Assembly: GCA_040753875.1 (NCBI GenBank)
Contig: JBFMDV010000005.1
Coordinates: forward strand, 305,142 to 369,141
DNA length: 64,000 nt
Direction of reading: 5' to 3'
Source of the DNA: Candidatus Zixiibacteriota bacterium
GTDB taxonomy: Bacteria; Zixibacteria; MSB-5A5; GN15; FEB-12
The notes below the pieces were generated by a model that saw only the letters and a program-made list of their open reading frames with translations, was not told the origin of the DNA and made no database searches. Of this stretch, positions 31,583 to 49,078 are shown one piece after another. The translations under genes and the position numbers were made by a program. Numbering within the stretch: position 1 is the stretch's first letter; every line of letters begins with the position of its first letter.

Positions 31583-32386
31583 TTACGCCGCGGGTGATTC
31601 GCGTCTCTTCAAATGTTGCACGATCTCCCAAGCGATATACGCGATCAGCATCACGACGATCAGCCAGAAGATCAAGGGGAACCATATCGAATGGTTGGGG
31701 TTGGCGTCATCAAAGGCGGTCTTCAGCCAGCTCCGGTTAAGGAACTGCACGCGCTCGATGAAGAGCGAGATACGCGCCATGACGGTATAGCCGAACGATG
31801 CCCCGAACCCGATCATCAGGATCCAGATTCCGAACTTGGCGAGCACGCCGAAAGCGCCGGTGTGCGCTTTGGAAAAGAAGAAGTAGGACAGTGCGGCCAG
31901 CGCTCCGACCAGAACGATGAGCTGCGACAACGCTGATGTCGGGTCAAACAAACCGGAACCAATGAATGTCTCCCACGAGATGTTCGACATCATCGCGTAC
32001 AACTGCTTGTTCACGCGGTTGGACATCTCGAGCGGGACCGCCAGACCGGCGGATATCCCGATATAGAGCGCCATCGGCCAGCGTGACATCCATGAGTACT
32101 TCTTCGAAAAGCGGGTCCACATCAGTGCGCCCAGGAAACCCGGAATGAGGTACCAAGGAGCCGAGGAGTCCAACCACACCTTGTACCAGTGACCGTCGGA
32201 CAGTTTCGCGAACAGGTTCGGGTAGAGGCTGTTGTGCCAGAGCAGAATGGAGAAGTACCCGGTAGCGGTACCGACCATGAGATGTTCGGCAAATTTGTAG
32301 AACGGATTGTCCTTATACAGGAAGCTGAATATCGCCAGCGTCAGAAACGCGGCCAAGCTTGTCCAGAGATACGTTTCAAAGTCCAT
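31583..32386 (-). CDS. module 1 component A: polytopic membrane protein, uncharacterised family
   Basis: 267 aa, MDFETYLWTSLAAFLTLAIFSFLYKDNPFYKFAEHLMVG...FFFSKAHTG...IGFGASFGYTVMARISL. It is a paralog of 35231-36064 and 38935-39594 and has an extra C-terminal TM segment. Confidence 0.85.
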   Translation of the reverse strand: MDFETYLWTSLAAFLTLAIFSFLYKDNPFYKFAEHLMVGTATGYFSILLWHNSLYPNLFAKLSDGHWYKVWLDSSAPWYLIPGFLGALMWTRFSKKYSWMSRWPMALYIGISAGLAVPLEMSNRVNKQLYAMMSNISWETFIGSGLFDPTSALSQLIVLVGALAALSYFFFSKAHTGAFGVLAKFGIWILMIGFGASFGYTVMARISLFIERVQFLNRSWLKTAFDDANPNHSIWFPLIFWLIVVMLIAYIAWEIVQHLKRRESPAA

Positions 32387-32388
32387 GC

Positions 32389-33264
32389 CTACCTGCCTTC
32401 CGTCGCGCGACGGCGCCGGGACGTGAAGTACCCGACGTTGCCTACGACTATGAACGCAATGATCACGATGTGCGCGAAGACCTGAATGCGCATACCATCG
32501 GTTGCGGGACCGGGGTTGTCGGCGAGTTGCTCATATTGCGCCGCTCCGAGAAGCCCCCCCATGAGGCCGAATATCTGACCGGAATTCAGGTACGGGTAGT
32601 AGTCGGCCGCCATGACGCCGGTGGTGCCGAGCGCCAGCGGGAAGTTGAAGCGCCCCTGACCATACGAGACCCAGGCGTCAGTAATGTTGCCACCGGAAAG
32701 ATCGATCACACAGGCTACTTGCTTGTAGTTGATGACGCCATTCATGATCGGCAGAGAGTCCAGCGGTCGACCATAGTAGTCGATCGGGAACGGCAACCGG
32801 AAATTCTGCCCCATCCCAAGAATCTGCAATATGAAGTACGGTTTGTATCCCAGGAACACATAGTCGACGCCGTTGACGAGTTCTCGCCCCTTATACGCCA
32901 CACCGTGGTATGTTTGGTCAAGCTTCATGGAATCCGTGATGTCGTGAATCGCCGCATCCACCATTCCGGAGCCGTACTGCGACAGCGTGCAGAAGATGAT
33001 CCGCAGGTCCTTGCGGAAGCAGTGCTCCATGATAGCGTATGCCATCGGATGCAACTCAGCCTGCATGGAGGGATCGTAGTCGATGCCGAGATACACGATC
33101 TGGCCGGGTTGGAGCTTGCCGACGAATTCGTATATGCTGCGGACCTCGCTGTTGATCCGGATCGGGATTTGAAACGAGACAGCATAGGTACCGACCACGA
33201 CGACAGCCAATAGGAGGAACACCCAGCGGCGGTCGATCGCCATCATCTTTTCGAAGATAGTCAT
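32389..33264 (-). CDS. module 1 component B: bitopic protein with a large domain held between N- and C-terminal TM anchors
   Basis: 291 aa. AAGGAGG precedes the ATG at 33264. Motifs are DYDPSMQAELHPMA, GYKPY, GAAQYEQL and AHIVIIAFIVVGNVGYF, then a basic tail. Paralog of 36067-37005 and 39599-40612. Confidence 0.85.
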   Translation of the reverse strand: MTIFEKMMAIDRRWVFLLLAVVVVGTYAVSFQIPIRINSEVRSIYEFVGKLQPGQIVYLGIDYDPSMQAELHPMAYAIMEHCFRKDLRIIFCTLSQYGSGMVDAAIHDITDSMKLDQTYHGVAYKGRELVNGVDYVFLGYKPYFILQILGMGQNFRLPFPIDYYGRPLDSLPIMNGVINYKQVACVIDLSGGNITDAWVSYGQGRFNFPLALGTTGVMAADYYPYLNSGQIFGLMGGLLGAAQYEQLADNPGPATDGMRIQVFAHIVIIAFIVVGNVGYFTSRRRRATEGR

Positions 33265-33952: not shown

Positions 33953-35197
33953 TCAATTGGCCACTTTGAAGAGCTCTTTGAAGCTCATGCCCCAGGAAAC
34001 ATCGGAAAACGCCGCGACATTCAGCGCTACAGCCCCGATCAGCGCGAGAATGATCACCGCCGCCTTTGCATAATCCTGTGCCTTCAGTGACCCCAGCAAC
34101 AGTGGTTCGCGTCCGAGGTAGGCCGAAGCGGCATAGAGCTCTTCGCCGATCAGCGTGTAATCACAGGCAACAACGAAAAACGGGATCTGGGCGACTTCAT
34201 CGGTGCCGGCGATCTGTATGGAGCCGGCCAGGGCACCGGTCTCGGCCAGAATCAGTGATTCCGCAAAGAACTTACCCATATACACGTTGGTTGCCGGCAA
34301 TTGCCTGAGCATGATACCATTGACAGCGCCGACATAACCGAACTGCGAGTTGGTCAGAAAGTAGACCATCTCCTCGCGGTAGTCATCGACTCGTCCGGCG
34401 TCCATATACGCCGATTTCACCGTCTCCTGAGCAACCGTCATCACAATCGGGTCATAGCAGGGGACGATCAAGTGGGTCTGGTATTCGGCAACCCGCTTGG
34501 CCACTCTGCCGAGGATGGTGAATGAGGCGATGGTCGCTATTTCGGCGGCGGTGCCGAGTCCAAGCACATACAGAATCGGCTTCCCCATTTCCGTCGCGCG
34601 CCCGATAGCTTCGTCGATAGCCTCTATTCCGCTCAACGGCCTCACGTACAGGTCACCACCCTTCTTGGCTTTGGTGACGAAAAAGACGGTGAGGAACCCG
34701 AAGAACAGCACTGCCACCAGCACCGGCACTCGCCCTTTGTTGAACCATTGCCCATACGACTGCACCGGTCCAAAGACTGGTGACAAGGACCTGATGGTTG
34801 AATCAGGTGTGACGGCATCGACACGGTAATAATAGTCCGTGTGGTCGGCCATGTAGTCGGGTGATTCCGCTTCTTTCGAACCGACATTGTTGTAGGTTTT
34901 CTGTCCGGGCAGTGCCGCCCCTACTTTTGTGAACTCGCCGCCGGGAGAAGTGGCACGGAGCACGTCGTAGGCGATGACGTTGCGGAGTCCGGCGCCGTCG
35001 TCCGGCGACAAATCCCATGAGAGCGTGATCGCGTGCCCGTGGTCGTTATCGAGGTCAATAGCCCGAAGATTAGAGACTGGCGCCGGAGGAGCTAGCGGCA
35101 GCGCCATATCCGGCGGTTGAATCGTGTCGATCTGCGCCACGGCCCCCGCAGTCGCCAACAGACACACCGTAAGAACTGTTCTCAGCAGAGATTGCAT
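33953..35197 (-). CDS. module 1 component D: signal peptide + Fn3-like ectodomain + TM + conserved ~240-aa core + C-terminal TM
   Basis: 414 aa. GGAGGA precedes the ATG at 35197. It has a signal peptide (MQSLLRTVLTVCLLATAGAVAQ) and ITLSWDLSPDD...YYYRVDAV. Core motifs are GIEAIDEAIGRATEMG, FAESLILAETG, IQIAGT and PFFVVACDYTLIGEELYAASAYL. Confidence 0.85.
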   Translation of the reverse strand: MQSLLRTVLTVCLLATAGAVAQIDTIQPPDMALPLAPPAPVSNLRAIDLDNDHGHAITLSWDLSPDDGAGLRNVIAYDVLRATSPGGEFTKVGAALPGQKTYNNVGSKEAESPDYMADHTDYYYRVDAVTPDSTIRSLSPVFGPVQSYGQWFNKGRVPVLVAVLFFGFLTVFFVTKAKKGGDLYVRPLSGIEAIDEAIGRATEMGKPILYVLGLGTAAEIATIASFTILGRVAKRVAEYQTHLIVPCYDPIVMTVAQETVKSAYMDAGRVDDYREEMVYFLTNSQFGYVGAVNGIMLRQLPATNVYMGKFFAESLILAETGALAGSIQIAGTDEVAQIPFFVVACDYTLIGEELYAASAYLGREPLLLGSLKAQDYAKAAVIILALIGAVALNVAAFSDVSWGMSFKELFKVAN

Positions 35198-35230: not shown

Positions 35231-36064
35231 TCATTGCTTGATCAATCCCAACCAGTCGCTGAACAGGAACGTCAACCGGCCCACGAGAAGCGAGACACGC
35301 CCCATCACCGTATAGCCGAACGACGCACCGAATGTCACCATCAGCACCCAGATCCCGAAGCGCGACGCGCGCCCCGTGAGTCCCGTGTGCTCCTTTGAAA
35401 AGAAGAAATATATCAATCCGCACACGACGCCAAGAAAAATCACCCAGTTGGCCAGCATGACGACGAACTGCCCGGCGATATTGAGGTTAAAGTCGGAAAT
35501 AAAACTCCCGATCCCCCGCCATTCGACCAGGAGTGGCACGAAGGTGGACGATATCTGCTCGATGAAATCGGAACGCATGTAGCGCACGAAATTCAGTCCG
35601 GCGGTGGTACCAACGATGAAGGCCAGCGACCATCTCGAGATCCACCCCAGTTTCGATGACAGCCTCATGAGCAGGAGCAGGCCGAATATGACCGGAATGA
35701 AAAACACCCAGTTGATCGGAAATGGCCCGACATACTCGCTCGGGATATACGGCACTTTGAAAGACGCCGACAGTGACGAGGAAATGCGAGGGATCAGGTT
35801 CCCGACGATGGTGGACCAGAACCCCATGCACATCCAGAACGCGGCGGATATCCCGACAAACAGGTGCTCGGCGAATTTATAGAACGGATTGTCGGCATAG
35901 AGGAATGACAGGACCGCCAGGGTCAGAAAGGCCGAGATGGTCACCAGGAATCCGCGCAGGATGTAGTCCTCCTGAACGCCGTTATATGCCGACGCCTTGG
36001 CGAACCAACTGACGGCAAACAGAACGACTACCGCAAAAAGAACAATGATGGTGGAACGTCTCAC
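35231..36064 (-). CDS. module 2 component A (with extra N-terminal TM segment)
   Basis: The GTG start at 36064 lies 2 nt after the B2 stop (TGAccGTG). The sequence (V)RRSTIIVLFAVVVLFAVSWF...FLTLAVLSFLYADNPFYKFAEHLFVG...FFFSKEHTG...TFGASFGYTVMGRVSL follows. The 377-aa track ORF was trimmed because its 5' part overlaps B2. Confidence 0.8.
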   Translation of the reverse strand: MRRSTIIVLFAVVVLFAVSWFAKASAYNGVQEDYILRGFLVTISAFLTLAVLSFLYADNPFYKFAEHLFVGISAAFWMCMGFWSTIVGNLIPRISSSLSASFKVPYIPSEYVGPFPINWVFFIPVIFGLLLLMRLSSKLGWISRWSLAFIVGTTAGLNFVRYMRSDFIEQISSTFVPLLVEWRGIGSFISDFNLNIAGQFVVMLANWVIFLGVVCGLIYFFFSKEHTGLTGRASRFGIWVLMVTFGASFGYTVMGRVSLLVGRLTFLFSDWLGLIKQ

Positions 36065-36066: not shown

Positions 36067-37005
36067 TCAGACCGGCTCCTTTTTGCGGGAGCGGAAGTAG
36101 GTGATGTTGCCGATGATTATGAATGCCATAATAACCAGGTGCGCCAGTGTCTGGGGGCCCATCATACGAAGCCCCGGAGCCGGCGTATCGGCAAACTGCG
36201 GATATCGGTTCACCAGTTCGTGCTCGTATTCGGCCGCCCCCTTGATGCCGCCGAGAATACCGAGAATTTGCCTGGGGTAATACGGATACAACAACGGTGC
36301 GGTCACCGCCGCCACGCCCGAGGCGATCGGTACGTTGCCGGGATCGCCGACAAACAGCACCCACTCTTTCGCGCCGGGATAACCACCGCCGGTCGTGAGG
36401 ACAAGGTCAAAATCCTTGCAGGACCTGACGCCGTCAAAGATCGGCAGGCTGTCGAGCGGCACGGTGTTAACATCGGTGGGGAACATCTTGCGGATATCGG
36501 TCACGATGACATTGAGCACGCCCTCGTTGCCCGCCTTGTACCCAATCACGGCGTAGTCGACGCCATTCACTTTCTGCGAAAATTCCCGCCGGACAACGCG
36601 GTCGAGGGAGGTGGTCATGAGCGCCTGACCGGTCGCCCAGAGCGACATGAACACGACACGATGCCCTTTGCTCAAGCAGTGGCGCATGTATGCATCAGCC
36701 ATCGGTTGAACTTCGGGGGCCATGGCCGGGTCAAAATCGAACGACATGAGCACGCGCGACCCCGGCGGCAATGATTCGATCTTGTCGAACACCGCCTTGA
36801 CGGTAGGTGTCATGCGCTCCTTGAACGTGATGGGAAAGAGCACCGGCAGGGAGACGGCCACAAATACAAACGCGAAGATAAGCCTTCGGGGAACTTCCCT
36901 GCCTTTGACCGAACGGATGGTAAGCCAGACCAGTCCACCGCCGATCGCCGCCAGGGTGAGCGCCACGCCGATATCGCTGAAGCTGATGGCCATGATGCCG
37001 AACAT
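36067..37005 (-). CDS. module 2 component B
   Basis: The ATG at 37005 lies 4 nt after the C2 stop. MFGIMAISF... has two N-terminal TM segments. Motifs are FDFDPAMAPEVQPMA, GYKAGNE, KEWVLF, GAAEYEHEL and AHLVIMAFIIIGNITYF. Confidence 0.85.
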   Translation of the reverse strand: MFGIMAISFSDIGVALTLAAIGGGLVWLTIRSVKGREVPRRLIFAFVFVAVSLPVLFPITFKERMTPTVKAVFDKIESLPPGSRVLMSFDFDPAMAPEVQPMADAYMRHCLSKGHRVVFMSLWATGQALMTTSLDRVVRREFSQKVNGVDYAVIGYKAGNEGVLNVIVTDIRKMFPTDVNTVPLDSLPIFDGVRSCKDFDLVLTTGGGYPGAKEWVLFVGDPGNVPIASGVAAVTAPLLYPYYPRQILGILGGIKGAAEYEHELVNRYPQFADTPAPGLRMMGPQTLAHLVIMAFIIIGNITYFRSRKKEPV

Positions 37006-37690: not shown

Positions 37691-38938
37691 TTACCGATTC
37701 GTCTGGAAAACCGAGGTGAGCGTGTTCAGAAGGTTGGTCATGAATTCGATATCGTAGGCCGCGCTCAGGGTGGCGGCAAGAGTCCCGATGAGTATCATCA
37801 ACAGCGCCAGCCCCTTGCCGATATCCTGGCCCTTCAGCGACCCGAGCTGCTTTGGCTCGCCGGAGAGATAGGCTGAGGCCGCGAATAACTCTTCGCCGAT
37901 GAGCGTGAAGTCGCACGCGGCGACAAAGAACGGCAACTGCGCCGGCATGGCGGTACCGGCGATCTGGATCGCTCCGACAGAATTGCCGGTCTCGGCTATG
38001 ATCAGAGACTCGGCAAAGAAAGCACCGAGATAGAAGCAGGTGGCCGGTTTCTCTCGTACCATGATACCGTCGACTGCCGCGACGTAGCCGAACTGCTCAT
38101 CGGTCACGTAGCGCACCATATCATCGTTGTAGGCATCGGGACGACCTGCCGCCATGTACGCAGTCTTGATTGTCTCGCGCGCGGCGGTCATTACCAGCGA
38201 CCGTGAGACCGGCATGTTGATCTTGGTGTCGTAATCAGCCACCACCCGCGCCACGCGGCCGAGGATAGTGATCCCCGCCACCGTCTGCACGTTATCCATA
38301 TCCTGAATGCCGGGGATAAACAGGATGGGGCGCCCCATTTCGGTGGCGCGACCGATTGCCTCATCGACGGCTTCAAGTCCGGCGATCTTACGAATAAACA
38401 GCTTTTTGCCGCGACGTGCGGTCTCGATGAAATAGATGACCGAACCGGCAATGATGAAGGCAATCAGGAAAAGATATTTCCTGTCAAAGTTGATCCATTC
38501 TCGTTCGGTGCGAAGAGGCGCGGTCCTGACCGAAAGTGCGGTGCCGGTCGGGGCGATAGTCTCAAGATAGTACACATAGGCACGGCCGAGTCGGACGGCG
38601 TTGTCCTGGTACCGATTCGTGCCGGCGGCAAACTCGGCCAGTTTGACCGGCGTGCTGTCATCGGTAATGCGGTATAGCCGGTAGCCGGTAACCGTCCCTT
38701 TCATAACCTGGTCATCTATGGAGGGGACCCAGGAGAGGTCGATGTGGTCGCCGTCATCGTACTTGTGGTCACTGGCGACGAGCGACGTAGCGGGGGCAGG
38801 AAGAATTGGTGCCGCGGTGTCTGGAATATCGGCCTGGGCGAAGGCTATGTTATTGGATGACGGGATCAGGACCAACGTGAGTAACAGACAGCATAGAGAG
38901 CAGACGTATGAACGAGAGATTGATGTGAGCGGTCTCAT
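37691..38938 (-). CDS. module 2 component D
   Basis: 415 aa. Its ATG overlaps the A3 stop (ATGA at 38935-38938). It has a signal peptide ending AFAQA and the Fn3-like IDLSWVPSIDD...YVYYLETIA. The core is almost colinear with D3. Confidence 0.85.
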   Translation of the reverse strand: MRPLTSISRSYVCSLCCLLLTLVLIPSSNNIAFAQADIPDTAAPILPAPATSLVASDHKYDDGDHIDLSWVPSIDDQVMKGTVTGYRLYRITDDSTPVKLAEFAAGTNRYQDNAVRLGRAYVYYLETIAPTGTALSVRTAPLRTEREWINFDRKYLFLIAFIIAGSVIYFIETARRGKKLFIRKIAGLEAVDEAIGRATEMGRPILFIPGIQDMDNVQTVAGITILGRVARVVADYDTKINMPVSRSLVMTAARETIKTAYMAAGRPDAYNDDMVRYVTDEQFGYVAAVDGIMVREKPATCFYLGAFFAESLIIAETGNSVGAIQIAGTAMPAQLPFFVAACDFTLIGEELFAASAYLSGEPKQLGSLKGQDIGKGLALLMILIGTLAATLSAAYDIEFMTNLLNTLTSVFQTNR

Positions 38939-39594
38939 TTGATAAGCCCCAACCAGTCTCCAAGCAGGAAATCGATGCGGCCTATCAAAAGCGACATACG
39001 GCTCATGACCGTGTAGCCGAACGACGCGCCAAATGTTACCATGAGGACGAATATACCAACTTTGGCCGCACCACCAAAGGCTCCTTTATGCTCTTTGGAA
39101 AAAAAGAAATAGATCAGGGCGGTGAAAGTCCCGACCGCCACCACCACATTACCGATCACGTCATAGAGCGACGCCCCTCCATCAGCGCCCAACAGCGGAC
39201 GGACGGTGTCGGCGACCTGCACCATCACGTTCGATGCAAAGTAGCCGATGAGATTAAGTCCGGCCGTGGCACCAACGATGAAGGCCAGCGGCCAACGCGA
39301 TAACCAGCCGATTTTGGGAATTAGCCGCATCAGCATCAAGAGCCCCAGCGCGCCGCCGACAAGCAGCGCGTAATCTGGAGATCGCGAGGGGTCTCCGGGA
39401 AACACGCCCACCCAGAACTTGCCGTAGATATTATCCCAGAAATAGGTGACGAACCAGTATCCGGCCGATGCCCCCACGAACACGGCCTCGCAGATTTTGT
39501 ACCACACATTGTCCCGATACAAAAACGAGATGATCCCGAGCGTGAGAAACGCCGCCGTCCACAGCGCGAGATGATCCATGATGCCGGTGTTCAT
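38935..39594 (-). CDS. module 3 component A (minimal form)
   Basis: The ATG at 39594 lies 4 nt after the B3 stop; the start could also be MDHLALW at 39579. FLTLGIISFLYRDNVWYKICEAVFVG...FFFSKEHKG...TFGASFGYTVMSRMSL is present. The track ORF start at 39756 was trimmed. Confidence 0.8.
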   Translation of the reverse strand: MNTGIMDHLALWTAAFLTLGIISFLYRDNVWYKICEAVFVGASAGYWFVTYFWDNIYGKFWVGVFPGDPSRSPDYALLVGGALGLLMLMRLIPKIGWLSRWPLAFIVGATAGLNLIGYFASNVMVQVADTVRPLLGADGGASLYDVIGNVVVAVGTFTALIYFFFSKEHKGAFGGAAKVGIFVLMVTFGASFGYTVMSRMSLLIGRIDFLLGDWLGLIK

Positions 39595-39598: not shown

Positions 39599-40612
39599 TC
39601 ACAGGCTCCGTTTCCCCTTACGTCGTTCGTGCATGAAGTAGGCCACGTTGCCGATGACAATGAATGCGACGACCACCAAGTGCGAAAACGATTGCGACAG
39701 CATGAACTTGGTTCCCTTGGCCAGCGTGCCGGTGAGCTGCTCGAACTCCGCCGCACCGTTCATGCCGCCCAGTATCCCCAGCAACTGGCCCGAGCGAACG
39801 TAGGGATACATGCCGGTTGTCTGAACGGCTGTGTTCCCGGCACCCATCTTGAGCCCATAGCGATCCACGGCAAACAGCACCCATTCTTTCGTGCCCGGGT
39901 ATCCGGCGGAAAGATTGAATGAATAATCGACGTTGGCATAGTTCCGCACGTTGCGCACCAGCGGCAGACTGTCATACGGCGTGCCCTGGTAATCGGCTGG
40001 AAACATCGACTTGAAATCCGATCCCAGCCGCTGAATGACGAATTCGTTGCCGGATTGGAATCCCAGGTTGACGTAGTCGACACCGTAGACCGGAAGCTTG
40101 GCACGTATGTCAGGTTCATCGAGTATCTTCGTCAACGCGAGATTTGCCTGTTGCGGTCCCTGCGGCCAGAGACCAAAGATGATCATTTTGAAATCGTGCG
40201 CGAAACCATAACGCAAGAACGACTCGGCCATTGGCTGCAGCTCGGCAGCCGAAGGGGGATCGTAGTCGAAAGTCACGAGTACTTTGGAACCTGGCGGGAC
40301 TTTCTGCAGATAATCATACAACATCTGAGCTTCCGATGAGATCGCCACTTTCTGGGTCAATGACATGAACAGCGGCATGGCCACGGCGATCCCCACATAC
40401 AGGAACACCACTCGCCGCTCGGCGAATTTCCCCCGTATAGTCAAAATGAGAATCCATACAATTGACAAGCCAAGCATAATCGACACAAGCAGCGATACAG
40501 CCGGTGAGAACGACACTGAACCAAACCAGCCGGCATGCCGCCCGACATACCAGATGGCGCACAGTGCGACTACAAGGATTATCAGAAGAAGACGAAACAT
40601 GCTGCGGCTCAT
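39599..40612 (-). CDS. module 3 component B (three N-terminal TM segments)
   Basis: The ATG at 40612 lies 5 nt after the C3 stop; TTG at 40621 is an alternative. Motifs are FDYDPPSAAELQPMA, GFQSGNE, KEWVLF, GAAEFEQL and SHLVVVAFIVIGNVAYF. Confidence 0.85.
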   Translation of the reverse strand: MSRSMFRLLLIILVVALCAIWYVGRHAGWFGSVSFSPAVSLLVSIMLGLSIVWILILTIRGKFAERRVVFLYVGIAVAMPLFMSLTQKVAISSEAQMLYDYLQKVPPGSKVLVTFDYDPPSAAELQPMAESFLRYGFAHDFKMIIFGLWPQGPQQANLALTKILDEPDIRAKLPVYGVDYVNLGFQSGNEFVIQRLGSDFKSMFPADYQGTPYDSLPLVRNVRNYANVDYSFNLSAGYPGTKEWVLFAVDRYGLKMGAGNTAVQTTGMYPYVRSGQLLGILGGMNGAAEFEQLTGTLAKGTKFMLSQSFSHLVVVAFIVIGNVAYFMHERRKGKRSL

Positions 40613-40617
40613 GCCAA

Positions 40618-41265
40618 TCAATCCCCTCCCAGGTGTGAGCGTTCAATGCCGAGGATAATCCGAAGCGAGGCGGAGACAGTCCCGAGTGCCACGCCGATCA
40701 TGATCGCCCGCTGGCCGGCCGTGTTGGGGAAGTTCATGATCCAGGTCGCCAGGTCAGACAAACGCCAGTGCTCCGGCAGGAATCCGGTGGCGACATCACC
40801 AACCGGAACCCGTCCCACCATCACCAGAAACGCGGCCACCAAGAGGAGTGTCGCATCGAGGTTGCGAGCGCGAAACGCCCGGTACGATGCTGAAGCCACG
40901 AAAAACGCCAGGATGGCATACATGGTAGATGAGAGCGGAGAATACACATAATTGTAGATCCAGTCGGACCAGGTGCCCGGATTGCGGAAATCCCGGCCTT
41001 CGGCGAAACCGACCACCGCAACAATCAGGAAGCAGACCACGATGATGACCGCGTAGCCCCATTCCCCTCTGCGGGAGAAGATCTTTTGCAGGGATGTCTT
41101 GAAGAGATTAAGTGCCCCCAGCCAGATCGCGCATGCGGCCACTATAGAAAACCAATCCGACTGCCAGTTGCTTACTTTGGAAAACGGGACATGCGGGATG
41201 AAATACTGCACCACCATCACAACCCCGACAATCGCGGTAATGATGAGCGGTACTTCGCGACGCAT
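40618..41265 (-). CDS. module 3 component C
   Basis: The ATG at 41265 shares one base with the D3 stop (TAATG, 41263-41267). MRREVPLIITAIVGVVMVVQYF..., YRAFRARN, PNTAGQRAIMIGVALG and LGIERSHLG are present. The track ORF start at 41457 was trimmed. Confidence 0.85.
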   Translation of the reverse strand: MRREVPLIITAIVGVVMVVQYFIPHVPFSKVSNWQSDWFSIVAACAIWLGALNLFKTSLQKIFSRRGEWGYAVIIVVCFLIVAVVGFAEGRDFRNPGTWSDWIYNYVYSPLSSTMYAILAFFVASASYRAFRARNLDATLLLVAAFLVMVGRVPVGDVATGFLPEHWRLSDLATWIMNFPNTAGQRAIMIGVALGTVSASLRIILGIERSHLGGD

Positions 41266-42512
41266 TACTCGATCACCTGAAACAACCTGGCGGCGTTGGC
41301 GAGATGCAGGGTCTCGAGCAGAATGCCGATCACGATGGCGGCCAGGATTACGCCCTTGCCGATATCCTGTCCCTTGAGTGAACCAAGCTGCCGCGGCTCT
41401 TTGGACAAGTAGGCAGATGCGGCGAACAACTCTTCGCCGATCAACGTGTAGTCGCACGCCGCGACGAAGAACGGCAACTGCGATGGCTCTGAGGTTCCGG
41501 CAATCTGAATCGCGCCGACCGAGTTACCGGTCTCTGCCAGAATCAACGACTCGGCATAGAACATCCCCATCATGAAGATGGCGGCCGGTTTCTCGCGAAC
41601 GACCAGACCATCGATCGCCGCAGCGTAACCGAACTGGTCGTCAGTCAAATATGTTACCTGATCTTCACGGAAGGAATCGGGGCGTCCCGACCGGACATAT
41701 GCCTCTTTCACGACTTCGCGGCAGGTAACCATCACAAGCGAGCGAGCCACCGGCACATCGAGTCGAGTCTCGTACTGCGCCGCTTTCTCGGCGACACGAC
41801 CGAGGATCGTAATACCGGCCAATGTGGCTACCTGGTCCATATCCTGTGAGCCGGGGATGTAGTAGACTTTGCGCCCCATTTCAGTGGCGCGGCCAACTGC
41901 TTCATCAACCGCCTCGAGCCCGGCGATCTTGCGAATGAAAAACGTCTTTCCGGCCTGGGCCAGCATGATGTAAAGGATAATGAAACCGCAAAGCATAACT
42001 GTCCCGACAAAGACATTGATGCGCCGCCAGTCGAACCACTGAGCCGTCGCCTTGACCGGGCCGACCGGCGCTGATTCCAACATCCAGACCTTGCCGAGCG
42101 TAGCAGCGGAAGAATCGCTGATTGTCCGCACTGTGTAGAAGTACTCTTTTCCTTCCACCACCTGCCCATCCTGGTACTTAGTGGTTCCGGCTGGCAGCAT
42201 GGCGAGACCAGTAATTAAACCCGGCGCACCATTGACACTTTCGGCTCGAGCAATAGAGTAAGCCTTCACCAATCCCTCAGCGTGGTCATCCGGCGAAAGC
42301 TCCCAGGTTATGTCGATCGACTCGCCCCCGTCGTTCGGAGTATCCTTGACCACAACGTGACTGGCCGGTCGGATTGGTGTTGTAGTTATAGAATCAAGAG
42401 AATCAGCGGCAGCGAGTGTTGGATCTGGTCCCGCGAGCGTGGCGAGCGCAACCATACCAGTTAACAGGCTGAAGTGGGGAAAAGAAACAAACAGAGAAGG
42501 CAAGTTAGTCAT
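41265..42512 (-). CDS. module 3 component D (first gene of the array)
   Basis: I chose the start at ATG 42512 (MTNLPSLFVSFPHFSLLTGMVALATLAG) by analogy with the D1 and D2 signal peptides. In-frame ATGs at 42584 and 42605 cannot be excluded. It has the Fn3-like IDITWELSPDD...YFYTVRTIS and the same core motifs as D2. Confidence 0.8.
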   Translation of the reverse strand: MTNLPSLFVSFPHFSLLTGMVALATLAGPDPTLAAADSLDSITTTPIRPASHVVVKDTPNDGGESIDITWELSPDDHAEGLVKAYSIARAESVNGAPGLITGLAMLPAGTTKYQDGQVVEGKEYFYTVRTISDSSAATLGKVWMLESAPVGPVKATAQWFDWRRINVFVGTVMLCGFIILYIMLAQAGKTFFIRKIAGLEAVDEAVGRATEMGRKVYYIPGSQDMDQVATLAGITILGRVAEKAAQYETRLDVPVARSLVMVTCREVVKEAYVRSGRPDSFREDQVTYLTDDQFGYAAAIDGLVVREKPAAIFMMGMFYAESLILAETGNSVGAIQIAGTSEPSQLPFFVAACDYTLIGEELFAASAYLSKEPRQLGSLKGQDIGKGVILAAIVIGILLETLHLANAARLFQVIE

Positions 42513-42982: not shown

Positions 42983-44839
42983 ATGGCCAAGTTTGCGAGT
43001 CCCGAGGAAATCAAAGTCATTGTTGCGACCGATTGCGGTTCGACCACCACGAAAGCAATTCTCATAGAATACCTCAACGGCGAATACCGCCTGCTCTCGC
43101 GAGGCGAGGCACCGACGACAGTCGAAGCTCCATTTGAAGATGTCACCATGGGAGTACTTAATGCGGTCGCGGAGTTGGAGGAGCTCTCGGGCAGGAAGTT
43201 GCTTGACGATCAGGGACGGTTCATCACGCCGGCAAATGGAAAAGAGGGAACCGACGTTTACATATCCACATCGTCGGCAGGGGGTGGGCTACAGATGATG
43301 GTGGCAGGCGTGGTGCGTTCTATGACGGCCGAGTCGGCTGAACGGGCGGCACTTGGCGCAGGGGCCATCGTGATGGACGTGATCGCATCGAACGACAAGC
43401 GGCTGCCGCACCAGCAAATCGAGCGGATACGGCATCTACGACCGGACATGATTCTCTTGTCGGGCGGAATTGACGGCGGTACAACTACGCACGTGGTAGA
43501 GATCGCTGAACTTGTTTCTGCGGCCGACCCGCGTCCCAGACTCGGCTCTGGCTACAAACTGCCGGTCATCTATGCGGGTAATAAAGATGCAACCGAGCCG
43601 GTCAAGGAAGCGCTGTCAGACAAAGTTGATCTGAAAGTGGTCCCGAACCTCCGCCCGGTCCTGGAGCGCGAAAACCTTGGTCCGGCCCGTGAAGAGATCC
43701 ATGAACTGTTTATGGAACACGTCATGGCCCAGGCACCCGGCTATCGCAAGCTGATGTCCTGGACCGACGCGCCGATTATGCCGACTCCCGGTGCGGTGGG
43801 GCTCATTATACAGACCATTGCAGACATTTACAATATCGAAGCGGTTGGTGTCGATATCGGCGGCGCTACCACTGATGTCTTCTCAGTATTTCGTCCGGAC
43901 AGCAAGACGCCGGTATTCAACCGGACGGTCTCGGCCAACCTGGGCATGTCGTACTCTATCTCCAACGTGTTCGCCGAGGCTACGCTGCCGATGGTGATGC
44001 GGTGGGTGCCGTTTCCGATGGACGAGCGGGACCTTCGCAACCGCGTGAAGAACAAGATGATCCGACCGACCACTATCCCGCAATCGATGGAAGAGCTGAT
44101 CTTCGAGCAGGCGATTGCACGCGAAGCGCTTCGACTGGCGTTTATCCAGCACAAGAGTTTTGCGACAGTTTTGAAAGGGGTGCAACAGCAGCGAACGATC
44201 GCCGACGCTTTCGAGCAGTCATCATCGGGCGCCTCAATCGTCAATATGATGACCCTCAACATGCTGATCGGCTCGGGCGGCGTGCTTTCACACGCGCCGC
44301 GTCGGCAACAGTCGGCCCTGATGATGATCGATTCGTTCCTTCCCGAAGGAGTGACGCGCCTGGCGGTCGATTCCATCTTTATGATGCCGCAGCTCGGCGT
44401 GCTGACCGAGGTGCAGCCGAAAGCGGCTACCGAAGTATTCGAAAAAGACTGCCTGATTCATCTGGGGACCTGCATAGCGCCCTCCGGCACTACGAAAAAG
44501 CCGGGACCGGTGATGAAATACTGTATCGAGTTACCGGGCGGCACGGTCAACGGCACACTCAGTCATTTGGAAATGAAGCTATTCAAGCTTGGCTTGCAGT
44601 CGAACAGGCTGCCGCAAACCGTGAAGGCAACGTTCGAACCGGAACGGAACTACGATGTGGGCGGCGGCAAGGGTGTCAAGGTGGAGCGAGAACTGCATGG
44701 TGGGGTGGTCGGCGTCATCCTCGACGGCCGCGGTCGGCCGTTCGATTTGTCATCGCTGTCCGAGCAAGACCGCGTCACCTATCTGAAGAAGTGGATTCTG
44801 GAATTGAACATATATCCGGAAGGAGATTGGGGAAAATGA
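42983..44839 (+). CDS. GlmL/MutL-family ASKHA-fold ATPase-like protein (glutamate mutase accessory protein family), 618 aa
   Basis: The N-terminal phosphate-1-like motif VATDCGSTTTKAILIE fits the D.GST.TK pattern of the MutL/GlmL family as I recall it. A second motif, VGVDIGGATTDVFSV, is present. No B12 mutase subunits occur in the window. Confidence 0.6.
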   Translation: MAKFASPEEIKVIVATDCGSTTTKAILIEYLNGEYRLLSRGEAPTTVEAPFEDVTMGVLNAVAELEELSGRKLLDDQGRFITPANGKEGTDVYISTSSAGGGLQMMVAGVVRSMTAESAERAALGAGAIVMDVIASNDKRLPHQQIERIRHLRPDMILLSGGIDGGTTTHVVEIAELVSAADPRPRLGSGYKLPVIYAGNKDATEPVKEALSDKVDLKVVPNLRPVLERENLGPAREEIHELFMEHVMAQAPGYRKLMSWTDAPIMPTPGAVGLIIQTIADIYNIEAVGVDIGGATTDVFSVFRPDSKTPVFNRTVSANLGMSYSISNVFAEATLPMVMRWVPFPMDERDLRNRVKNKMIRPTTIPQSMEELIFEQAIAREALRLAFIQHKSFATVLKGVQQQRTIADAFEQSSSGASIVNMMTLNMLIGSGGVLSHAPRRQQSALMMIDSFLPEGVTRLAVDSIFMMPQLGVLTEVQPKAATEVFEKDCLIHLGTCIAPSGTTKKPGPVMKYCIELPGGTVNGTLSHLEMKLFKLGLQSNRLPQTVKATFEPERNYDVGGGKGVKVERELHGGVVGVILDGRGRPFDLSSLSEQDRVTYLKKWILELNIYPEGDWGK

Positions 44840-45630
44840 CGCGCCACCCCAGAGCTATCGTGACAATCTCGCTGCTTGTTGCAGCGGCACTATCAGCGGC
44901 TGCTTCCCCTTCCCAAGCAACCAACTTCGTCAGCCTGAACGGCAAGTTCTACATCTCTTATCCCGCCGATTGGAAGCAGGTCGATTTCCTGACCGTAGAT
45001 TATTTCCTGGCGCAGTCCAACGCGGGCCAGCAGACGTTTCAATACGAGGCCGTGTTCGCGCCGGCCGACCAGGTTCCGTTCAGCGATGGTCCGTATCTTA
45101 TTCTCACTGTCGACACGATCGGCAATCTGACCGATCGGCAGATTGACTCAGTGCTCGATGATCTGTCCAAAGGGTTCGGCGCGCCGATCAACCGCACAAC
45201 GAGCGGCGATCCGTTGACCGGGTTGACCGTGGCTGAACCGAGATATGACGCTTCCGCCCATCTTGTGACTATCCTTTCGGACATACGAGAGTTGAATCAG
45301 CCGCTTCGAAAAAGCCTGCTCGCGGTCAAGTTTTACCCCGGCGGTACGGCCAATTTCTATTTCTATGCGCCGGATTCTCTGTTCGCACGGGTCACTCCCG
45401 TGTTCAGGGACATTCTGGCGTCATTCTCGACGGAAAATATTCAAGCTGCCATGCCGAAAGAGGAATTGCGTCTGGCGGACTCCAAGAAAACGAGCGATAC
45501 CTCGGACGGCAGCTCGACGAAACGCCGAGGCCTGTTTGGTGGCGGCATTTTTGTTGTCATCATCCTGATCATCGTGATGGCTCGTCGCAGACGGAAACGC
45601 CGCGAAGCGGAGCAGAATCTCCAGCACTAA
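44836..45630 (+). CDS. hypothetical exported protein with C-terminal membrane anchor
   Basis: ATGA overlap with the upstream gene. It has a signal peptide (MTRHPRAIVTISLLVAAALSAAASPSQA), a C-terminal TM (LFGGGIFVVIILIIVMA) and a basic tail, RRRRKRRE. It corresponds to the 3' part of track ORF 44002-45630. Confidence 0.7.
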   Translation: MTRHPRAIVTISLLVAAALSAAASPSQATNFVSLNGKFYISYPADWKQVDFLTVDYFLAQSNAGQQTFQYEAVFAPADQVPFSDGPYLILTVDTIGNLTDRQIDSVLDDLSKGFGAPINRTTSGDPLTGLTVAEPRYDASAHLVTILSDIRELNQPLRKSLLAVKFYPGGTANFYFYAPDSLFARVTPVFRDILASFSTENIQAAMPKEELRLADSKKTSDTSDGSSTKRRGLFGGGIFVVIILIIVMARRRRKRREAEQNLQH

Positions 45631-45643
45631 GAGGAATACCCCC

Positions 45644-46771
45644 ATGGGTCATGCGTATACGCCGGGACTGAAAGTCACCGAGAAACTACTCGTCAAGAAG
45701 AACCGTATTCTCCCTCTCAAGGGAGAGGTGGTCGTCAAGACGGGCGACAGGGTCAAGCCGAGCGATGTGGTTGCCCGGACCCATCTGCCCGGCAATGTCG
45801 TGCCGCTGAACATTGCCAATAAGCTGGGTATCCCGCCGGAAGACATCGGTACCGTCATGATGAAGAAAGTCGGCGATGGAATCAAGAACGGCGAGGTGAT
45901 TGCTATCTCCAAGTCGTTGTTCGGCCTGTTCAAGAACGAATGTCAGGCCACGATCGACGGCACCATTGAATCGATCTCGCACGTAACCGGCCAGGTGCTC
46001 CTGCGCGGAGAGCCGACCCCGGTTGAAGTGAAAGCATATATCTCGGGCGAGGTGCTGGAGGTGATCCCGAAAGAGGGGGTGGTGGTGGCGTGCGTGGCCA
46101 GTTTCGTCCAGGGGATTTTCGGTATCGGCGGCGAGACGTTCGGCGCCTTGCAGGTGGTGGTCCCGGACCCGAATACCGTGCTCACCGAAAAACTCATCAC
46201 CGAAAGTCACAAGGGAAAGGTTATAGTCGGCGGCTCGCTGGTGACGGCCGATGGCCTCAAGAAGGCGATCGCCGTCGGCGTCCACGGCGTGGTGGTCGGT
46301 GGATTTGACGACAAGGACCTTCGCGATTTCCTCGGCTACGATATTGGCGTGGCGATCACCGGCTCGGAGGATATCGGCACCACGCTGGTGGTGACCGAAG
46401 GGTTCGGCCAGATCAACATGGCGCAGAAGACGTTCGATTTGCTGAAGAAGCACGAAGGAGAAATGGCCTGCATCAACGGGGCAACGCAAATCCGGGCCGG
46501 CGTGATCCGGCCGGAAGTCGTCATTCCGGCGGTTGCGGAGTCGAATATCAAAGCTGAGGCAGTGGCTGGGCAGACCGAGGGACTGAAAGTGGGATCCCCG
46601 ATTCGCGTCATCCGACATCCTCATTTCGGACGACTGGGCAAGGTGACCGACCTGCCGTCACCATTGACCGTCCTGGAATCCGAGTCCAAAGCGCGCATTC
46701 TCGAAGTGGAATTTGACGACGGTTCCCGTGCGGTTGTCCCGCGTGCCAATGTTGAGATGATTGAAGGCTGA
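45644..46771 (+). CDS. hypothetical cytoplasmic protein (N-terminal barrel-sandwich-hybrid-like segment, C-terminal KOW/SH3-like segment)
   Basis: 375 aa. The N-terminus LPLKGEVVVKTGDRVKPSDVVAR resembles lipoyl/hybrid-barrel folds. The C-terminus GSPIRVIRHPHFGRLGKVTDL is KOW-like. I recognise no family. Confidence 0.6.
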   Translation: MGHAYTPGLKVTEKLLVKKNRILPLKGEVVVKTGDRVKPSDVVARTHLPGNVVPLNIANKLGIPPEDIGTVMMKKVGDGIKNGEVIAISKSLFGLFKNECQATIDGTIESISHVTGQVLLRGEPTPVEVKAYISGEVLEVIPKEGVVVACVASFVQGIFGIGGETFGALQVVVPDPNTVLTEKLITESHKGKVIVGGSLVTADGLKKAIAVGVHGVVVGGFDDKDLRDFLGYDIGVAITGSEDIGTTLVVTEGFGQINMAQKTFDLLKKHEGEMACINGATQIRAGVIRPEVVIPAVAESNIKAEAVAGQTEGLKVGSPIRVIRHPHFGRLGKVTDLPSPLTVLESESKARILEVEFDDGSRAVVPRANVEMIEG

Positions 46772-46796: not shown

Positions 46797-46828
46797 AAAC
46801 CCTCTCCACAAGGGAGGGTTTTGTTATT
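46797..46828 (+). terminator. rho-independent terminator of the GlmL-like operon
   Basis: AAACCCTCTCC (46797-46807), loop ACAA, then GGGAGGGTTT followed by TTGTTATT. It overlaps the stop of the convergent lipoprotein gene. Confidence 0.65.
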
Positions 46829-47060
46829 CGGGGCTGTCGGGCGACTCGACCGTATCTACCGGACCAGCGGGGGCAAAATCTGCGCTGTCGAGCAGCGAAC
46901 TATCCACTCGCACCGCCGCCGGATCGAGCCGCGTACTATCGCGGAACTCGTCGGGATGTCCGGCCGCCGAAGTCTGGTCCTTTCCGGAACCATCCTTGGT
47001 ACCACATCCCAGAATAAGCACGAGCAACAAACCGACAATGATGACTATTAAGCTTCTCAT
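46824..47060 (-). CDS. small lipoprotein (78 aa)
   Basis: AGGAGGGG precedes the ATG at 47060. MRSLIVIIVGLLLVLILGCG carries the lipobox LILGC. Confidence 0.65.
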   Translation of the reverse strand: MRSLIVIIVGLLLVLILGCGTKDGSGKDQTSAAGHPDEFRDSTRLDPAAVRVDSSLLDSADFAPAGPVDTVESPDSPE

Positions 47061-47261: not shown

Positions 47262-47972
47262 ATGCCAAAGCTCATTCTTGCGAGCCTGTTTTCCGGCTCG
47301 CTGTGGGAAATAATCGGGGAGACCTCCGCCTTCGGCGGGTTCATCCTCGCCGTCCTTCTGTTCATGTCGGTCACCTCGTGGGTGGTGATACTGAACAAAT
47401 GGCGGCAGTTCCGGTCGGTTGACCGGGACAACGAGCGCTTTCTGAACATGTTCCGCAAAGCGAGGCGCATCGGTGATGCCGTCGACCAGATCAAGCTGTT
47501 CCCCCACGCACCGTTGGCCGGTATCTATGCCGCCGGCGTACAGGAACTGGTGACGCTGGTGAACCGTAAGACCGGCGGCAAGCCGGAAAGTTTCACGCCG
47601 CTCGATAGTAATGACTTCGACGTGCTTGAAATGACCATGGAGAAGACGATGACCGATGAAATGGGCAAGATGGAACGGCTGGTGGTATTCCTTGCCACGA
47701 CGTCATCGGCGGCTCCGTTCATGGGCCTGCTCGGCACGGTGGTCGGCATTATGGATTCATTCTGGTCAATCGGCGAGCGCGGAAACGCCTCGCTGGCCAT
47801 CGTGGCACCCGGCATTGCCGAAGCGCTGCTGGCCACAATTGTCGGTCTCGGCGCCGCCATCCCGGCGGTCATTGCCTACAACTGGGCCAACAACAAGACC
47901 AAATTCCTCAACGACAAGGCGGGCGGGTTCATCCTGGAGTTTCTGGCCCGCGCCAAGAAGGAACTGTTCTGA
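47262..47972 (+). CDS. tolQ: Tol-Pal system protein TolQ (MotA/TolQ/ExbB family)
   Basis: 236 aa with three TM segments. The family motif GLLGTVVGIMDSF...APGIAEALLATIVGL is present. Context is tolR-tolA-tolB-pal-cpoB. Confidence 0.88.
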   Translation: MPKLILASLFSGSLWEIIGETSAFGGFILAVLLFMSVTSWVVILNKWRQFRSVDRDNERFLNMFRKARRIGDAVDQIKLFPHAPLAGIYAAGVQELVTLVNRKTGGKPESFTPLDSNDFDVLEMTMEKTMTDEMGKMERLVVFLATTSSAAPFMGLLGTVVGIMDSFWSIGERGNASLAIVAPGIAEALLATIVGLGAAIPAVIAYNWANNKTKFLNDKAGGFILEFLARAKKELF

Positions 47973-48403
47973 TGCGTCGCCCTCCTCATCGGACCTATCG
48001 GTCGATGGCCGATATCAACATCGCCAACCTTGTCGACGTGGTGCTGGTGCTCTTGATCATATTCATGATCTCCGCGCCGTTGCTTCAGTCCGGCATCGAG
48101 GTCAACCTGCCCAAGACCAAGGCGGCCGCCGCCGAGGAAGAACGCGAGGGGGTTGTCATTACCATGGATGCCAAGGGAGGAGTGTATATCAACGATGTCT
48201 GGTCGCGGATGGACAAGTTCGAAGAAGCGCTGGATAAAGAGATAAAAGCCAAGAACACGAGCGCCGTGTATATCCGTGGTGATTCGTCGGTCCCGTATGG
48301 CCTGGCTATCGACATCATCGGACGGATCAAGGAAATGGGGATAGAGCAGATCGGGCTGGTGACCGCCCATCAGGACAAGGGACAGAAGAAGCTGAAGAAA
48401 TGA
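47972..48403 (+). CDS. tolR: TolR (ExbD/TolR family)
   Basis: TGATG overlap with tolQ. DINIANLVDVVLVLLIIFMISAPLL is typical of ExbD/TolR. Confidence 0.88.
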   Translation: MRRPPHRTYRSMADINIANLVDVVLVLLIIFMISAPLLQSGIEVNLPKTKAAAAEEEREGVVITMDAKGGVYINDVWSRMDKFEEALDKEIKAKNTSAVYIRGDSSVPYGLAIDIIGRIKEMGIEQIGLVTAHQDKGQKKLKK

Positions 48404-49071: not shown

Positions 49072-49078
49072 GGCATAC

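Follow-up and report, generated by a model that had tools for sequence, protein, structure and literature searches.

A 64,000-nucleotide stretch from a metagenome-assembled genome of the Zixibacteria (Candidatus Zixiibacteriota bacterium, contig JBFMDV010000005.1, positions 305,142 to 369,141; hereafter, the window, to which all coordinates refer) encodes a 618-amino acid (aa) protein of the MutL/GlmL family of ASKHA ATPases (P1), an anchored protein (P2) and a 375-aa partner (P3), next to divergently transcribed cassettes of membrane-protein genes that we denote D-C-B-A. From the comparison of this region with 168 related loci with flanks of up to 10 kb (L numbers) and with P1-homologous proteins (P0xxx numbers), we propose that P1 and P3 comprise a cytoplasmic, nucleotide-driven module that acts on a four-protein inner-membrane complex consisting of D, C, B and A and does not serve a B12 mutase. 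This proposal is tentative, and we rate its chance of being correct at slightly below even. The coordinates of all features are collected in the table in the last section.

P1, a long-form member of the MutL family, and its partner P3

The first-pass annotation, which was made from the sequence alone, described P1 as a 618-aa open reading frame with two ASKHA phosphate-binding motifs and assigned it to the GlmL/MutL type. Both motifs are present, in VATDCGSTTTKAILIE (residues 13-28) and VGVDIGGATTDVF (residues 287-299), and the profile search yields the expected family: residues 13-490 of P1 align with the entire Pfam MutL model (PF13941, positions 1-450 of 450; E-value of 4.7e-129, 431.5 bits compared to the cut-off of 27). 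With respect to the ASKHA superfamily patterns DxGxTxxK (phosphate-1), DxGGxTxD (phosphate-2) and GxGG (adenosine), P1 contains DCGSTTTK at residues 17-24, DIGGATTD at residues 291-298 and GSGGVL at approximately residues 430-435. Across 49 diverse long-form representatives, D17 is invariant, and conservation of 90% or more is seen for G19, T23, D291, G293, T296, T297 and G432. Judging by these motifs, P1 is a member of the ASKHA superfamily and a putative ATPase. The C-terminal extension (residues 491-618) is conserved in the same 49 long forms and includes an invariant D581-x-R583 signature (within 'LDGRGRP') that is retained as 'LIDxR' in a distant subfamily of P1-P3 fusion proteins. No sequence match to P1 was detected among solved structures, either with the single sequence or with a profile search of the PDB.

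Canonical GlmL (PF13941; NF040745) shares with P1 the Pfam family, the phosphate-1 and phosphate-2 motifs, and 25-29% identity over about 460 aa (P1 residues 10-489 against GlmL residues 1-457 in BLASTP), leaving residues 490-618 of P1 without a counterpart. Unlike P1, GlmL is 461 aa long and is encoded between glmS and glmE, whereas P1 comes without these genes, is 157 aa longer and is accompanied by P3 and the membrane module. The excess of approximately 150 aa over the clostridial GlmL that was estimated in the first-pass annotation is therefore accurate and is mainly due to the extension. P1 scores below the cut-offs of all GlmL-type NCBIfam models, namely, the GlmL equivalog NF040745 (234.1 bits compared to 475), the GlmL-related ornithine degradation protein Or-4, NF040744 (222.7 compared to 600), and the glmL_fam subfamily TIGR01319 (174.5 compared to 204.05). 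Nonetheless, P1 homologues are labelled 'TIGR01319 family' by JGI, and appear in databases under the names 'glutamate mutase L' or 'methylaspartate mutase'. As a positive control, P1 was compared by tblastn to annotated plasmid and chromid records; this search retrieved only canonical GlmLs, with 25-30% identity and all within residues 3-489 of P1. Those of Peptoclostridium acidaminophilum and Prevotella nigrescens are 461-aa proteins encoded in glmS-glmL-glmE-methylaspartase clusters.

The mutase subunits that the first-pass annotation found missing from the vicinity of P1 are indeed missing: Pfam scans of the large open reading frames of the window detected no B12 mutase, and tblastn searches of the window with canonical GlmS, GlmE and methylaspartase queries produced zero matches. 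In the 168 related loci, GlmE and methylaspartase likewise gave zero matches, and GlmS gave a single, weak match resembling a B12-binding domain (L084). Neither the DxHxxG...SxL...GG cobalamin motif nor a conserved Cys cluster is present in P1, P3, B or D. In view of the missed NCBIfam cut-offs, the essentially empty mutase searches and the lack of the B12 motif, we rejected the role of a B12-mutase accessory protein for P1. A remaining form of the conventional annotation, for which the database names and the PF13941 match speak, has P1 as the reactivase of a glutamate mutase or aminomutase, with the gene for this B12 enzyme located in another part of the genome. This explanation appears barely tenable and is largely refuted by the combination of the sub-threshold scores and the lack of GlmE, methylaspartase and all but one weak GlmS-like match with three further observations: the control GlmLs are always located between glmS and glmE; P1 possesses an additional conserved domain and a partner, P3, both of which are absent from glm clusters; and the synteny of P1 is instead with membrane proteins. 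On sequence grounds, then, P1 belongs to PF13941 without being a GlmL proper. In the literature, GlmL/MutL itself is described as a chaperone for reactivation solely because of its analogy to the diol dehydratase reactivating factor (PMC4682846).

Exhaustive HMMER search yielded 2,952 cluster representatives, 746 of these with E-values of 1e-30 or lower; P0001, labelled Candidatus Zixiibacteriota, is 100% identical to P1. Most of the best 150 are either long forms (~560-640 aa) or larger proteins in the range of ~900-1,330 aa, and the remainder are shorter. The identity of P1 is 85-94% within the best 120 clusters and 65-91% across phyla that, according to the genome labels, include Zixibacteria, Calditrichaeota, Planctomycetota, Poribacteria, Eisenbacteria, Fermentibacteria, Gemmatimonadota, Fibrobacterota, CSSED10-310 and others. 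For the same genome pairs, the mean identity is 85% for P1, 72% for P3, 67% for TolR, 58% for TolQ and 59-64% for D; in the two loci that carry PPDK, the identity of the latter is 71% (compared to the P1 mean of 85%). Thus, P1 is exceptionally conserved, above TolQ, TolR and PPDK, and this level of conservation, with 65-91% identity across phyla, implies an important cellular function.

P1 is followed by P3 in 59 of the 69 genome loci in which the sequence continues for at least 1.5 kb 3' of P1, and P3 is adjacent or fused to P1 in 35 of the 47 informative P1 clusters (delineated at 80% identity). Single chains in which a P1 portion precedes a P3 portion were identified in P0122 (995 aa), P0133 (1,003 aa, Ozemobacteraceae), P0137, P0187 (Zophobacter), P0201 and P0231. 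Such fusions are classical Rosetta-stone evidence of a physical partnership. By the criteria of gene adjacency and fusion, P3 is a constant, obligate partner of P1.

The AlphaFold2 model of P3 (predicted local distance difference test score, pLDDT, of 80) consists of a barrel-sandwich hybrid domain at residues ~11-141, followed by an alpha/beta domain at ~145-300 and, at ~315-375, a KOW/SH3-like barrel, so the hybrid-barrel-like and KOW-like ends that had been read from the sequence in the first-pass annotation are correct at the level of the fold. Foldseek comparison of the model with the PDB produced domain-level matches only (T. maritima NusG, BesA, Spt5 KOW, PetP and Tudor); for the C-terminal barrel, the matches to Spt5 KOW, PetP and Tudor have probabilities of 0.99-1.00 and target-normalised template-modelling scores of 0.65-0.84 over approximately 60-80 residues. 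At the sequence level, searches of Pfam, NCBIfam and the PDB gave no match to P3, with the C-terminal similarity to Pfam KOW remaining below the threshold. P3 proteins are 51-75% identical across phyla, and the invariant motifs include YTPGLKV, FxQGIFGxGGE, GVAITGxE, TEGFG and NGxTQIRAGVxRPE.

P3 homologues show weak matches to RnfC_N, NQRA_N and Biotin_lipoyl: a single homologue reaches 25.7 bits on RnfC_N (threshold of 25.6), the E-values for NQRA_N are 0.0035-0.005, and the P3 of the window itself is below the threshold. The barrel-sandwich fold as well as the gcv and lipB genes found in some neighborhoods suggested that P3 could be a lipoyl or biotinyl carrier. This candidate role was rejected given that the Biotin_lipoyl matches are sub-threshold and no lysine of the hybrid barrel is invariant; K90 and K97 vary across phyla, with T, Q and R found at these positions in L061, L063 and L067, respectively.

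Linkage of P1 and P3 to the D-C-B-A membrane cassettes

The D-C-B-A genes form three tandem paralogous cassettes (31583-42512, minus strand) that together include 12 tightly packed membrane-protein genes, with overlaps at the D1/C1, A1/D2 and B2/A2 junctions. The D1, D2 and D3 proteins all score far above the cut-off of 27 for PF20539 (DUF6754) and share a layout that includes a signal peptide, a periplasmic FN3 domain, a transmembrane (TM) segment, an alpha/beta DUF6754 domain of approximately 175 residues and a C-terminal TM segment. In the AlphaFold2 model of D2 (pLDDT of 80), the FN3 domain spans residues 51-135, the TM segment residues 151-175, the alpha/beta domain residues 186-359, and a C-terminal helical hairpin residues 362-411. 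The FN3 domain is supported by a PDB profile search and by Foldseek, and the alpha/beta domain is assigned to the cytoplasm because of the positive-inside rule.

For A, B and C, no match was found in Pfam or the PDB, and Pfam scans of all members of the respective alignments gave scattered sub-threshold noise; comparisons with hhalign detected no homology between P3 and D, between A and C (probability of 0.5%) or between B and D. The B proteins contain a D-R-R motif before the first TM segment, in which D11 is nearly invariant and R12 and R13 are invariant. Each of the three cassette types has its orthologues in other genomes, indicating that the triplication is ancient and that each copy has been maintained.

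Of the 62 loci in which P1 is flanked by 6 kb or more in both directions, 52 have P3 next to P1 or fused to it, and a complete D-C-B-A set is present in 34, with one D gene in 15 of these loci, two in 9 and three in 10. Outside the clade to which the window belongs, the usual layout is a single co-directional operon, P1-P3-D-C-B-A, that is found under many phylum labels (L031, L040, L042, L046, L054, L057, L058, L063, L067, L069, L073, L076 and L080 as well as many metagenome loci); in L090, D-C-B-A is followed by a P1-P3 fusion. In the reciprocal test, with D homologues chosen without reference to P1 and neighborhoods of 10 kb, PF13941 was recovered in five of the six informative contexts and a gene of P3 size (~375 aa) in all six. 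These co-directional operons and the D-seeded recovery of P1 and P3 substantiate the link to an ATPase-less membrane array that was suggested in the first-pass annotation, which had also named the pattern that would speak against the link, namely, homologs located consistently next to B12 mutases or unrelated pathways and never next to the membrane module; this is not the pattern that we observed, and the other outcome named there, the lack of any MutL/GlmL or ASKHA profile match to P1, did not arise either. By gene count, the ratio of the cytoplasmic pair to the cassettes is 1:1, 1:2 or 1:3, and in the genome of the window, a single P1-P3 module probably serves all three cassettes. P1 is unlinked from the other genes of the system in L032, L033 and the Poribacteria loci L071 and L079. 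A separate arrangement was observed in L115 (9974-16830), where two tandem P1-P3 pairs are present in the same locus, without D-C-B-A within the flanks.

An N-terminal TM anchor is present in three P1 variants, P0132 (Chloroflexota), P0131 (Bacillota) and P0124. Together with the small proteins X and Y and with P2 (all described below), these variants locate P1 on the cytoplasmic side of the membrane across diverse bacterial groups. Two of the anchored variants additionally contain extracellular domains, Peptidase_M1 in P0131 and TSP3 repeats in P0124; independently, in L052, genes for an M1 peptidase and for proteins with type IX secretion system tails adjoin P1 (13147-16170).

In PilM-PilN-PilO, GspL-GspM, FtsA and MreB-RodZ, a cytoplasmic actin-fold protein is coupled to bitopic inner-membrane proteins with periplasmic domains. 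By analogy, the cytoplasmic D-R-R motif of B may be compared to the N-terminal peptide of PilN that is bound by PilM. The P1 system differs from PilM, GspL, FtsA and MreB in that there is no family homology and no pilus, secretin or divisome genes are conserved near P1. A cytoskeletal role, whereby P1 would polymerise similarly to MreB, FtsA or ParM, with D-C-B-A, X and Y serving as membrane anchors that organise an envelope process, would be compatible with the ASKHA fold, the repeated membrane association and the conservation of P1, which is at the level of cytoskeletal and other core proteins, as well as with the adjacency of P1 to Tol-Pal in Zixibacteria-type genomes. We consider this scenario very unlikely: the closest branches to PF13941 are those of hydantoinases and reactivases rather than actin-like filament families, the MreB-like matches of P1 are not significant, P1 lacks a terminal amphipathic helix, and the Tol adjacency is limited to one clade.

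A candidate nucleotide-driven envelope machine

In the proposed mechanism, the two ASKHA lobes of P1 would close upon ATP binding and hydrolysis, and this motion would be relayed via the C-terminal domain of P1, with its D-x-R signature, and P3 to the cytoplasmic domain of D, with the conserved cytoplasmic N-terminus of B as a possible second target. The motion would then cross the membrane to the periplasmic FN3 and B domains where it might drive transport or assembly of some envelope or periplasmic substrate. In this scheme, as for the energising or assembly role suggested in the first-pass annotation, we infer the physical contact between the parts, the ATPase-driven coupling, and both the direction and the nature of the work performed.

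A parallel to the cytoplasmic half of this scheme is provided by DdrAB (PduGH) and EutA, in which an ASKHA ATPase acts, together with a smaller partner, through a nucleotide-dependent conformational change on an alpha/beta domain of the client. The P1-P3 pair could follow the same logic of an ASKHA ATPase with a small partner; in contrast to DdrAB and EutA, the P1 system lacks a B12 enzyme, a B12 motif, a cofactor signature and a match to a solved structure, and the presumed client is a membrane complex. The reactivase logic is that of the diol/glycerol dehydratase reactivating factor (PMC4682846).

The layout of the membrane half resembles that of Rnf and Na+-NQR, with P3 as a candidate peripheral subunit whose barrel-sandwich hybrid would correspond to that of RnfC/NqrA, polytopic A and C, bitopic B, and TM-anchored D with a cytoplasmic domain. 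The differences are that the P1 system contains no conserved Cys/His cofactor sites and no equivalent of RnfD/NqrB, and that the input comes from a protein with an ATPase fold, not from a redox module. The Rnf-Nqr Pfam family had no match, at E-values of up to 0.1, in 24 C and 23 A sequences, and NqrA and RnfC are absent among the 50 Foldseek matches listed for P3. Membership of the system in the Rnf/Nqr family was rejected on account of the lack of Rnf-Nqr matches in A and C, the lack of relationship between A and C, and the lack of Cys clusters.

Several observations weigh against the proposal that P1-P3 acts on D-C-B-A. Approximately 45% of the loci with long flanks lack D-C-B-A nearby; conversely, in L162/L163 (a Latescibacterota cluster), P3-D-C-B-A is present with no P1 within 10 kb, the only D-seeded context of this kind. 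The distant P1-P3 fusion subfamily (L081-L089 and L125) has neither D-C-B-A nor conserved neighbors. The cytoplasmic domain of D produced no structural match, the Foldseek results being dominated by FN3. To our knowledge, no transporter or other machine has been described that is powered by an ASKHA ATPase. Finally, the canonical GlmL relatives are themselves only presumed to be chaperones, by analogy with other systems (PMC4682846). In the neighborhoods of the distant fusions and of the loci with P1 alone, no genes are conserved beyond Y and housekeeping genes. The distant fusions without D-C-B-A indicate that P1-P3 is the ancestral functional pair, and that D-C-B-A is a module associated with this pair in the subfamily represented in the window. 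The fusion subfamily also has a duplicated hybrid-barrel region.

These same fusions, existing without the membrane module, are what would be expected of a self-contained enzyme. Under such a metabolic scenario, P1-P3 would be a soluble ATP-dependent enzyme (a kinase, ligase or hydantoinase-like protein) whose substrate (a small molecule, a peptide or a derivative of an amino acid) is imported or exported by D-C-B-A, and the clustering of the genes would reflect a common pathway rather than a single machine. Many ASKHA proteins are kinases, the canonical relatives of P1 belong to amino-acid fermentation pathways, and associations with M1 peptidases (the P0131 fusion and L052), an OPT transporter (L161) and glycine-cleavage genes (at least 12 loci) recur. 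In addition, P1 has a secondary match to Hydantoinase_A (PF01968) near phosphate-2 (E-value of 0.0026; 17.5 bits, below the gathering threshold of 22.9), and among its relatives, the E-values of such matches go down to 1e-5, with four relatives scoring 23.7-25.5 bits. This weak secondary match around phosphate-2 is what P1 has in common with the group of hydantoinase A, oxoprolinase and acetone carboxylase; the differences are that no HyuB-like partner is present and that P3 is unrelated to this group. We view the metabolic scenario as rather unlikely because no further enzyme family is conserved in the neighborhood, D-C-B-A is unlike any known transporter family, the cross-phylum identity of 65-91% would be unusual for a peripheral catabolic enzyme, and both the P1 variants with TM anchors and the membrane association of X and Y favor action at the membrane.

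P1-P3 could also be an assembly or maintenance chaperone, in which an Hsp70-like P1, together with P3, would assemble, repair or reset D-C-B-A, for example, via the alpha/beta domain of D, without powering each cycle of its activity. The description of GlmL/MutL as a reactivation chaperone, by analogy (PMC4682846), is in line with this possibility, as are the presence of alpha/beta domains in both P3 and D, which could be the client or a swap partner, and the ratio of one P1-P3 pair to one to three cassettes. Sequence data alone do not separate such a chaperone from the P1-P3-driven machine that we favor, but the chaperone appears decidedly unlikely: assembly factors rarely exceed their clients in conservation, whereas the identity of P1 is 85% compared to 59-64% for D, and the fusion to P3 along with the membrane tethering suggests a permanent subunit.

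Under the P1-P3-driven machine hypothesis, a still broader claim can be formulated. The long-form MutL ATPase, P3 and D-C-B-A, with either X/Y or P2, might represent an unrecognised class of envelope machines and the first ASKHA-powered multi-subunit inner-membrane complex, distinct from ABC, AAA+, P-type, rotary and ion-motive systems, with an Rnf/Nqr-like layout that is devoid of redox cofactors. Such machines would be spread among many, mostly uncultured diderm phyla, with an ATPase that is about as conserved as core bioenergetic proteins and that would be a single motor for up to three specialised cassettes. In this full form, we consider the claim somewhat unlikely. Searches of the literature library used found nothing relevant on DUF6754, PF13941, TIGR01319 or the association of P1/P3 with D-C-B-A genes, and P3, A, B, C and P2 are not represented by any model in the curated family libraries.

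If correct, the proposed function would mean that thousands of genes annotated as 'glutamate mutase L' or 'methylaspartate mutase' in Zixibacteria, Calditrichota, Planctomycetota, Gemmatimonadota, Fibrobacterota, Eisenbacteria, Poribacteria and other phyla are mis-annotated and are, in effect, markers of a system that is self-contained and comprises six to eight genes. With an ASKHA-powered membrane complex, energy would be coupled to work at the bacterial envelope in a new way, and nucleotide-driven remodelling of the alpha/beta domain of a partner would emerge as a possible general role of MutL/GlmL proteins. The parts list of the system is now defined and includes five or more families (P3, A, B, C and DUF6754 of D, plus X, Y and P2) without a known function or a solved structure.

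Accessory proteins and genomic setting

The first-pass annotation also posited translational coupling, via an ATGA overlap, of P1 to an exported, C-terminally anchored protein. P2 fits this description: the P1 stop and the P2 start overlap as ATGA at 44836-44839, and the protein starts with a hydrophobic segment resembling a signal sequence, continues with a conserved periplasmic domain and a low-complexity linker, and ends with a TM segment and a basic tail, RRRRKRR. P3 starts 13 bases after the P2 stop and is followed by a terminator-like hairpin with a T-run, which fits the terminator claimed in the same annotation; in this region, such sites are no more frequent than in shuffled sequence. 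The three-gene operon is thus present in the window but does not hold as a conserved unit, given that P2 is clade-specific, whereas the constant partner of P1 is P3. P2 has no Pfam match, and its homologues were detected only in the close Zixibacteria-type clade, with 30-48% identity. We examined the P2 C-terminus as a candidate sorting signal and rejected this possibility, the match to GG_III-CTERM being weak (E-value of 0.005; 16.7 bits compared to the cut-off of 22). As no motif preceding the TM segment is conserved among 30 homologues, the C-terminus appears to be a plain membrane anchor.

In most lineages outside the clade of the window, P1 is directly preceded on the same strand by a small gene X, a small gene Y, or both. 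The X protein (~150 aa) contains two TM segments and a C-terminal domain with the motif 'GVLLSPF..SRLENFRG', and the Y protein (~130 aa) contains a hydrophobic core, 'PAILFLES.KPLN.GSQ', and a charged tail. Loci with X/Y are L041-L080 and L092-L165 (for example, L164:5984-6776 and L161:5978-6876); neither gene is detectable anywhere in the window. Of the 110 loci in which P1 is flanked by 1.5 kb or more in both directions, 58 contain only X/Y, 21 only P2, 31 neither and none both. Because X/Y and P2 never occur together, P2 looks like a lineage-specific replacement or addition rather than a core part; by this pattern, P2 would be a clade-specific periplasmic, membrane-anchored accessory subunit that takes the place of X and Y.

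In at least 12 loci (L060, L063, L064, L067, L068, L069, L106, L116, L124, L128, L164 and L165), (X)-Y-P1 is directly preceded by glycine-cleavage genes of the same orientation. These neighbors include gcvPA/PB throughout, gcvT in some of the loci, and gcvH in L164 and L165; in L164, lipB follows the last cassette. This adjacency may reflect lineage synteny or may be a functional hint. In L161, the gene adjoining the cassette encodes an OPT oligopeptide transporter.

D1 and P1 are divergent and are separated by a 470-bp intergenic region that holds the P1 promoter candidate. In L168, which is otherwise similar to the window, a gene for a TIR-domain protein (CAP12-PCTIR) and a second gene are inserted between the divergent P1 and D1 (7594-8712).

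Table. Positions, strands and supporting evidence for the features of the system in the 64-kb window
Feature	Coordinates	Strand	Basis or remarks
A3	31583..32386	-	
B3	32389..33264	-	
C3	33277..33936	-	
D3, third cassette	33953..35197	-	PF20539, 375 bits
A2	35231..36064	-	
B2	36067..37005	-	
C2	37010..37687	-	
D2, second cassette	37691..38938	-	PF20539, 413.6 bits; start overlaps A1 stop
A1, polytopic (at least 4 TM)	38935..39594	-	
B1, N-terminal TM(s), ~225-aa predicted periplasmic domain, C-terminal TM	39599..40612	-	
C1, polytopic (~5-6 TM)	40618..41265	-	start overlaps D1 stop
D1, DUF6754 protein	41265..42512	-	PF20539, 408 bits; FN3 by PDB profile search; layout from D2 model; hydropathy
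Sigma-70-like promoter candidate 5' of D1, divergent from P1	42666..42694	-	TTGACT-17-TAGATT; consensus match only
Sigma-70-like promoter candidate 5' of P1	42850..42878	+	TTTACA-17-TATACT; consensus match only
P1, 618-aa long-form MutL/GlmL-family ASKHA ATPase	42983..44839	+	PF13941, 431.5 bits
P1 ASKHA/MutL core, residues 13-490	43019..44452	+	Pfam alignment over the whole model; BLASTP to canonical GlmL
P1 C-terminal extension, residues 491-618	44453..44836	+	absent from canonical GlmL; no Pfam match
P2, exported, C-terminally anchored, 264 aa	44836..45630	+	hydropathy; homologue comparison
P3, 375-aa cytoplasmic partner of P1	45644..46771	+	no TM; AlphaFold2 model
Terminator-like hairpin and T-run, end of the P1-P2-P3 unit	46802..46828	+	

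Long open reading frames antisense to P1 and P3 (42787-46624, considering both strands; for example, 43828-44376 and 45686-46624) cluster across 40-73 loci. Because this clustering stems only from the conservation of the sense genes, we regard these as shadow reading frames, not genes. A mobile-element origin was considered and rejected: there was no phage match, and the matches in the plasmid collection are all canonical GlmLs with less than 31% identity.

The window is a housekeeping stretch of the chromosome, the other genes of which include those for acetyl-CoA synthetase, UvrB, BamA-Skp-LpxD, Lgt, LipB, NadA, GluRS, PPDK, Tol-Pal, LigA and DnaX. Between the P3 terminator and tolQ, there is a 78-aa open reading frame (46824-47060, minus strand) without a Pfam match that has a lipoprotein-like N-terminus (LLVLILGC lipobox). 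A complete Tol-Pal cluster lies directly 3' (47262-51882) and encodes TolQ, TolR, a TonB_C-type TolA, TolB, an OmpA-family Pal and a CpoB-like protein with TPR repeats; Tol-Pal also adjoins P1/P3, in either of two orientations, elsewhere in the Zixibacteria-type clade, but not in other phyla. Further downstream, a gene for a large-type bacterial signal recognition particle RNA (RF01854, 152 bits; 55991-56256, minus strand) adjoins that for tRNA-Ala(CGC) (56416-56490, minus strand), in a host that, with BamA and Tol-Pal, is a diderm.

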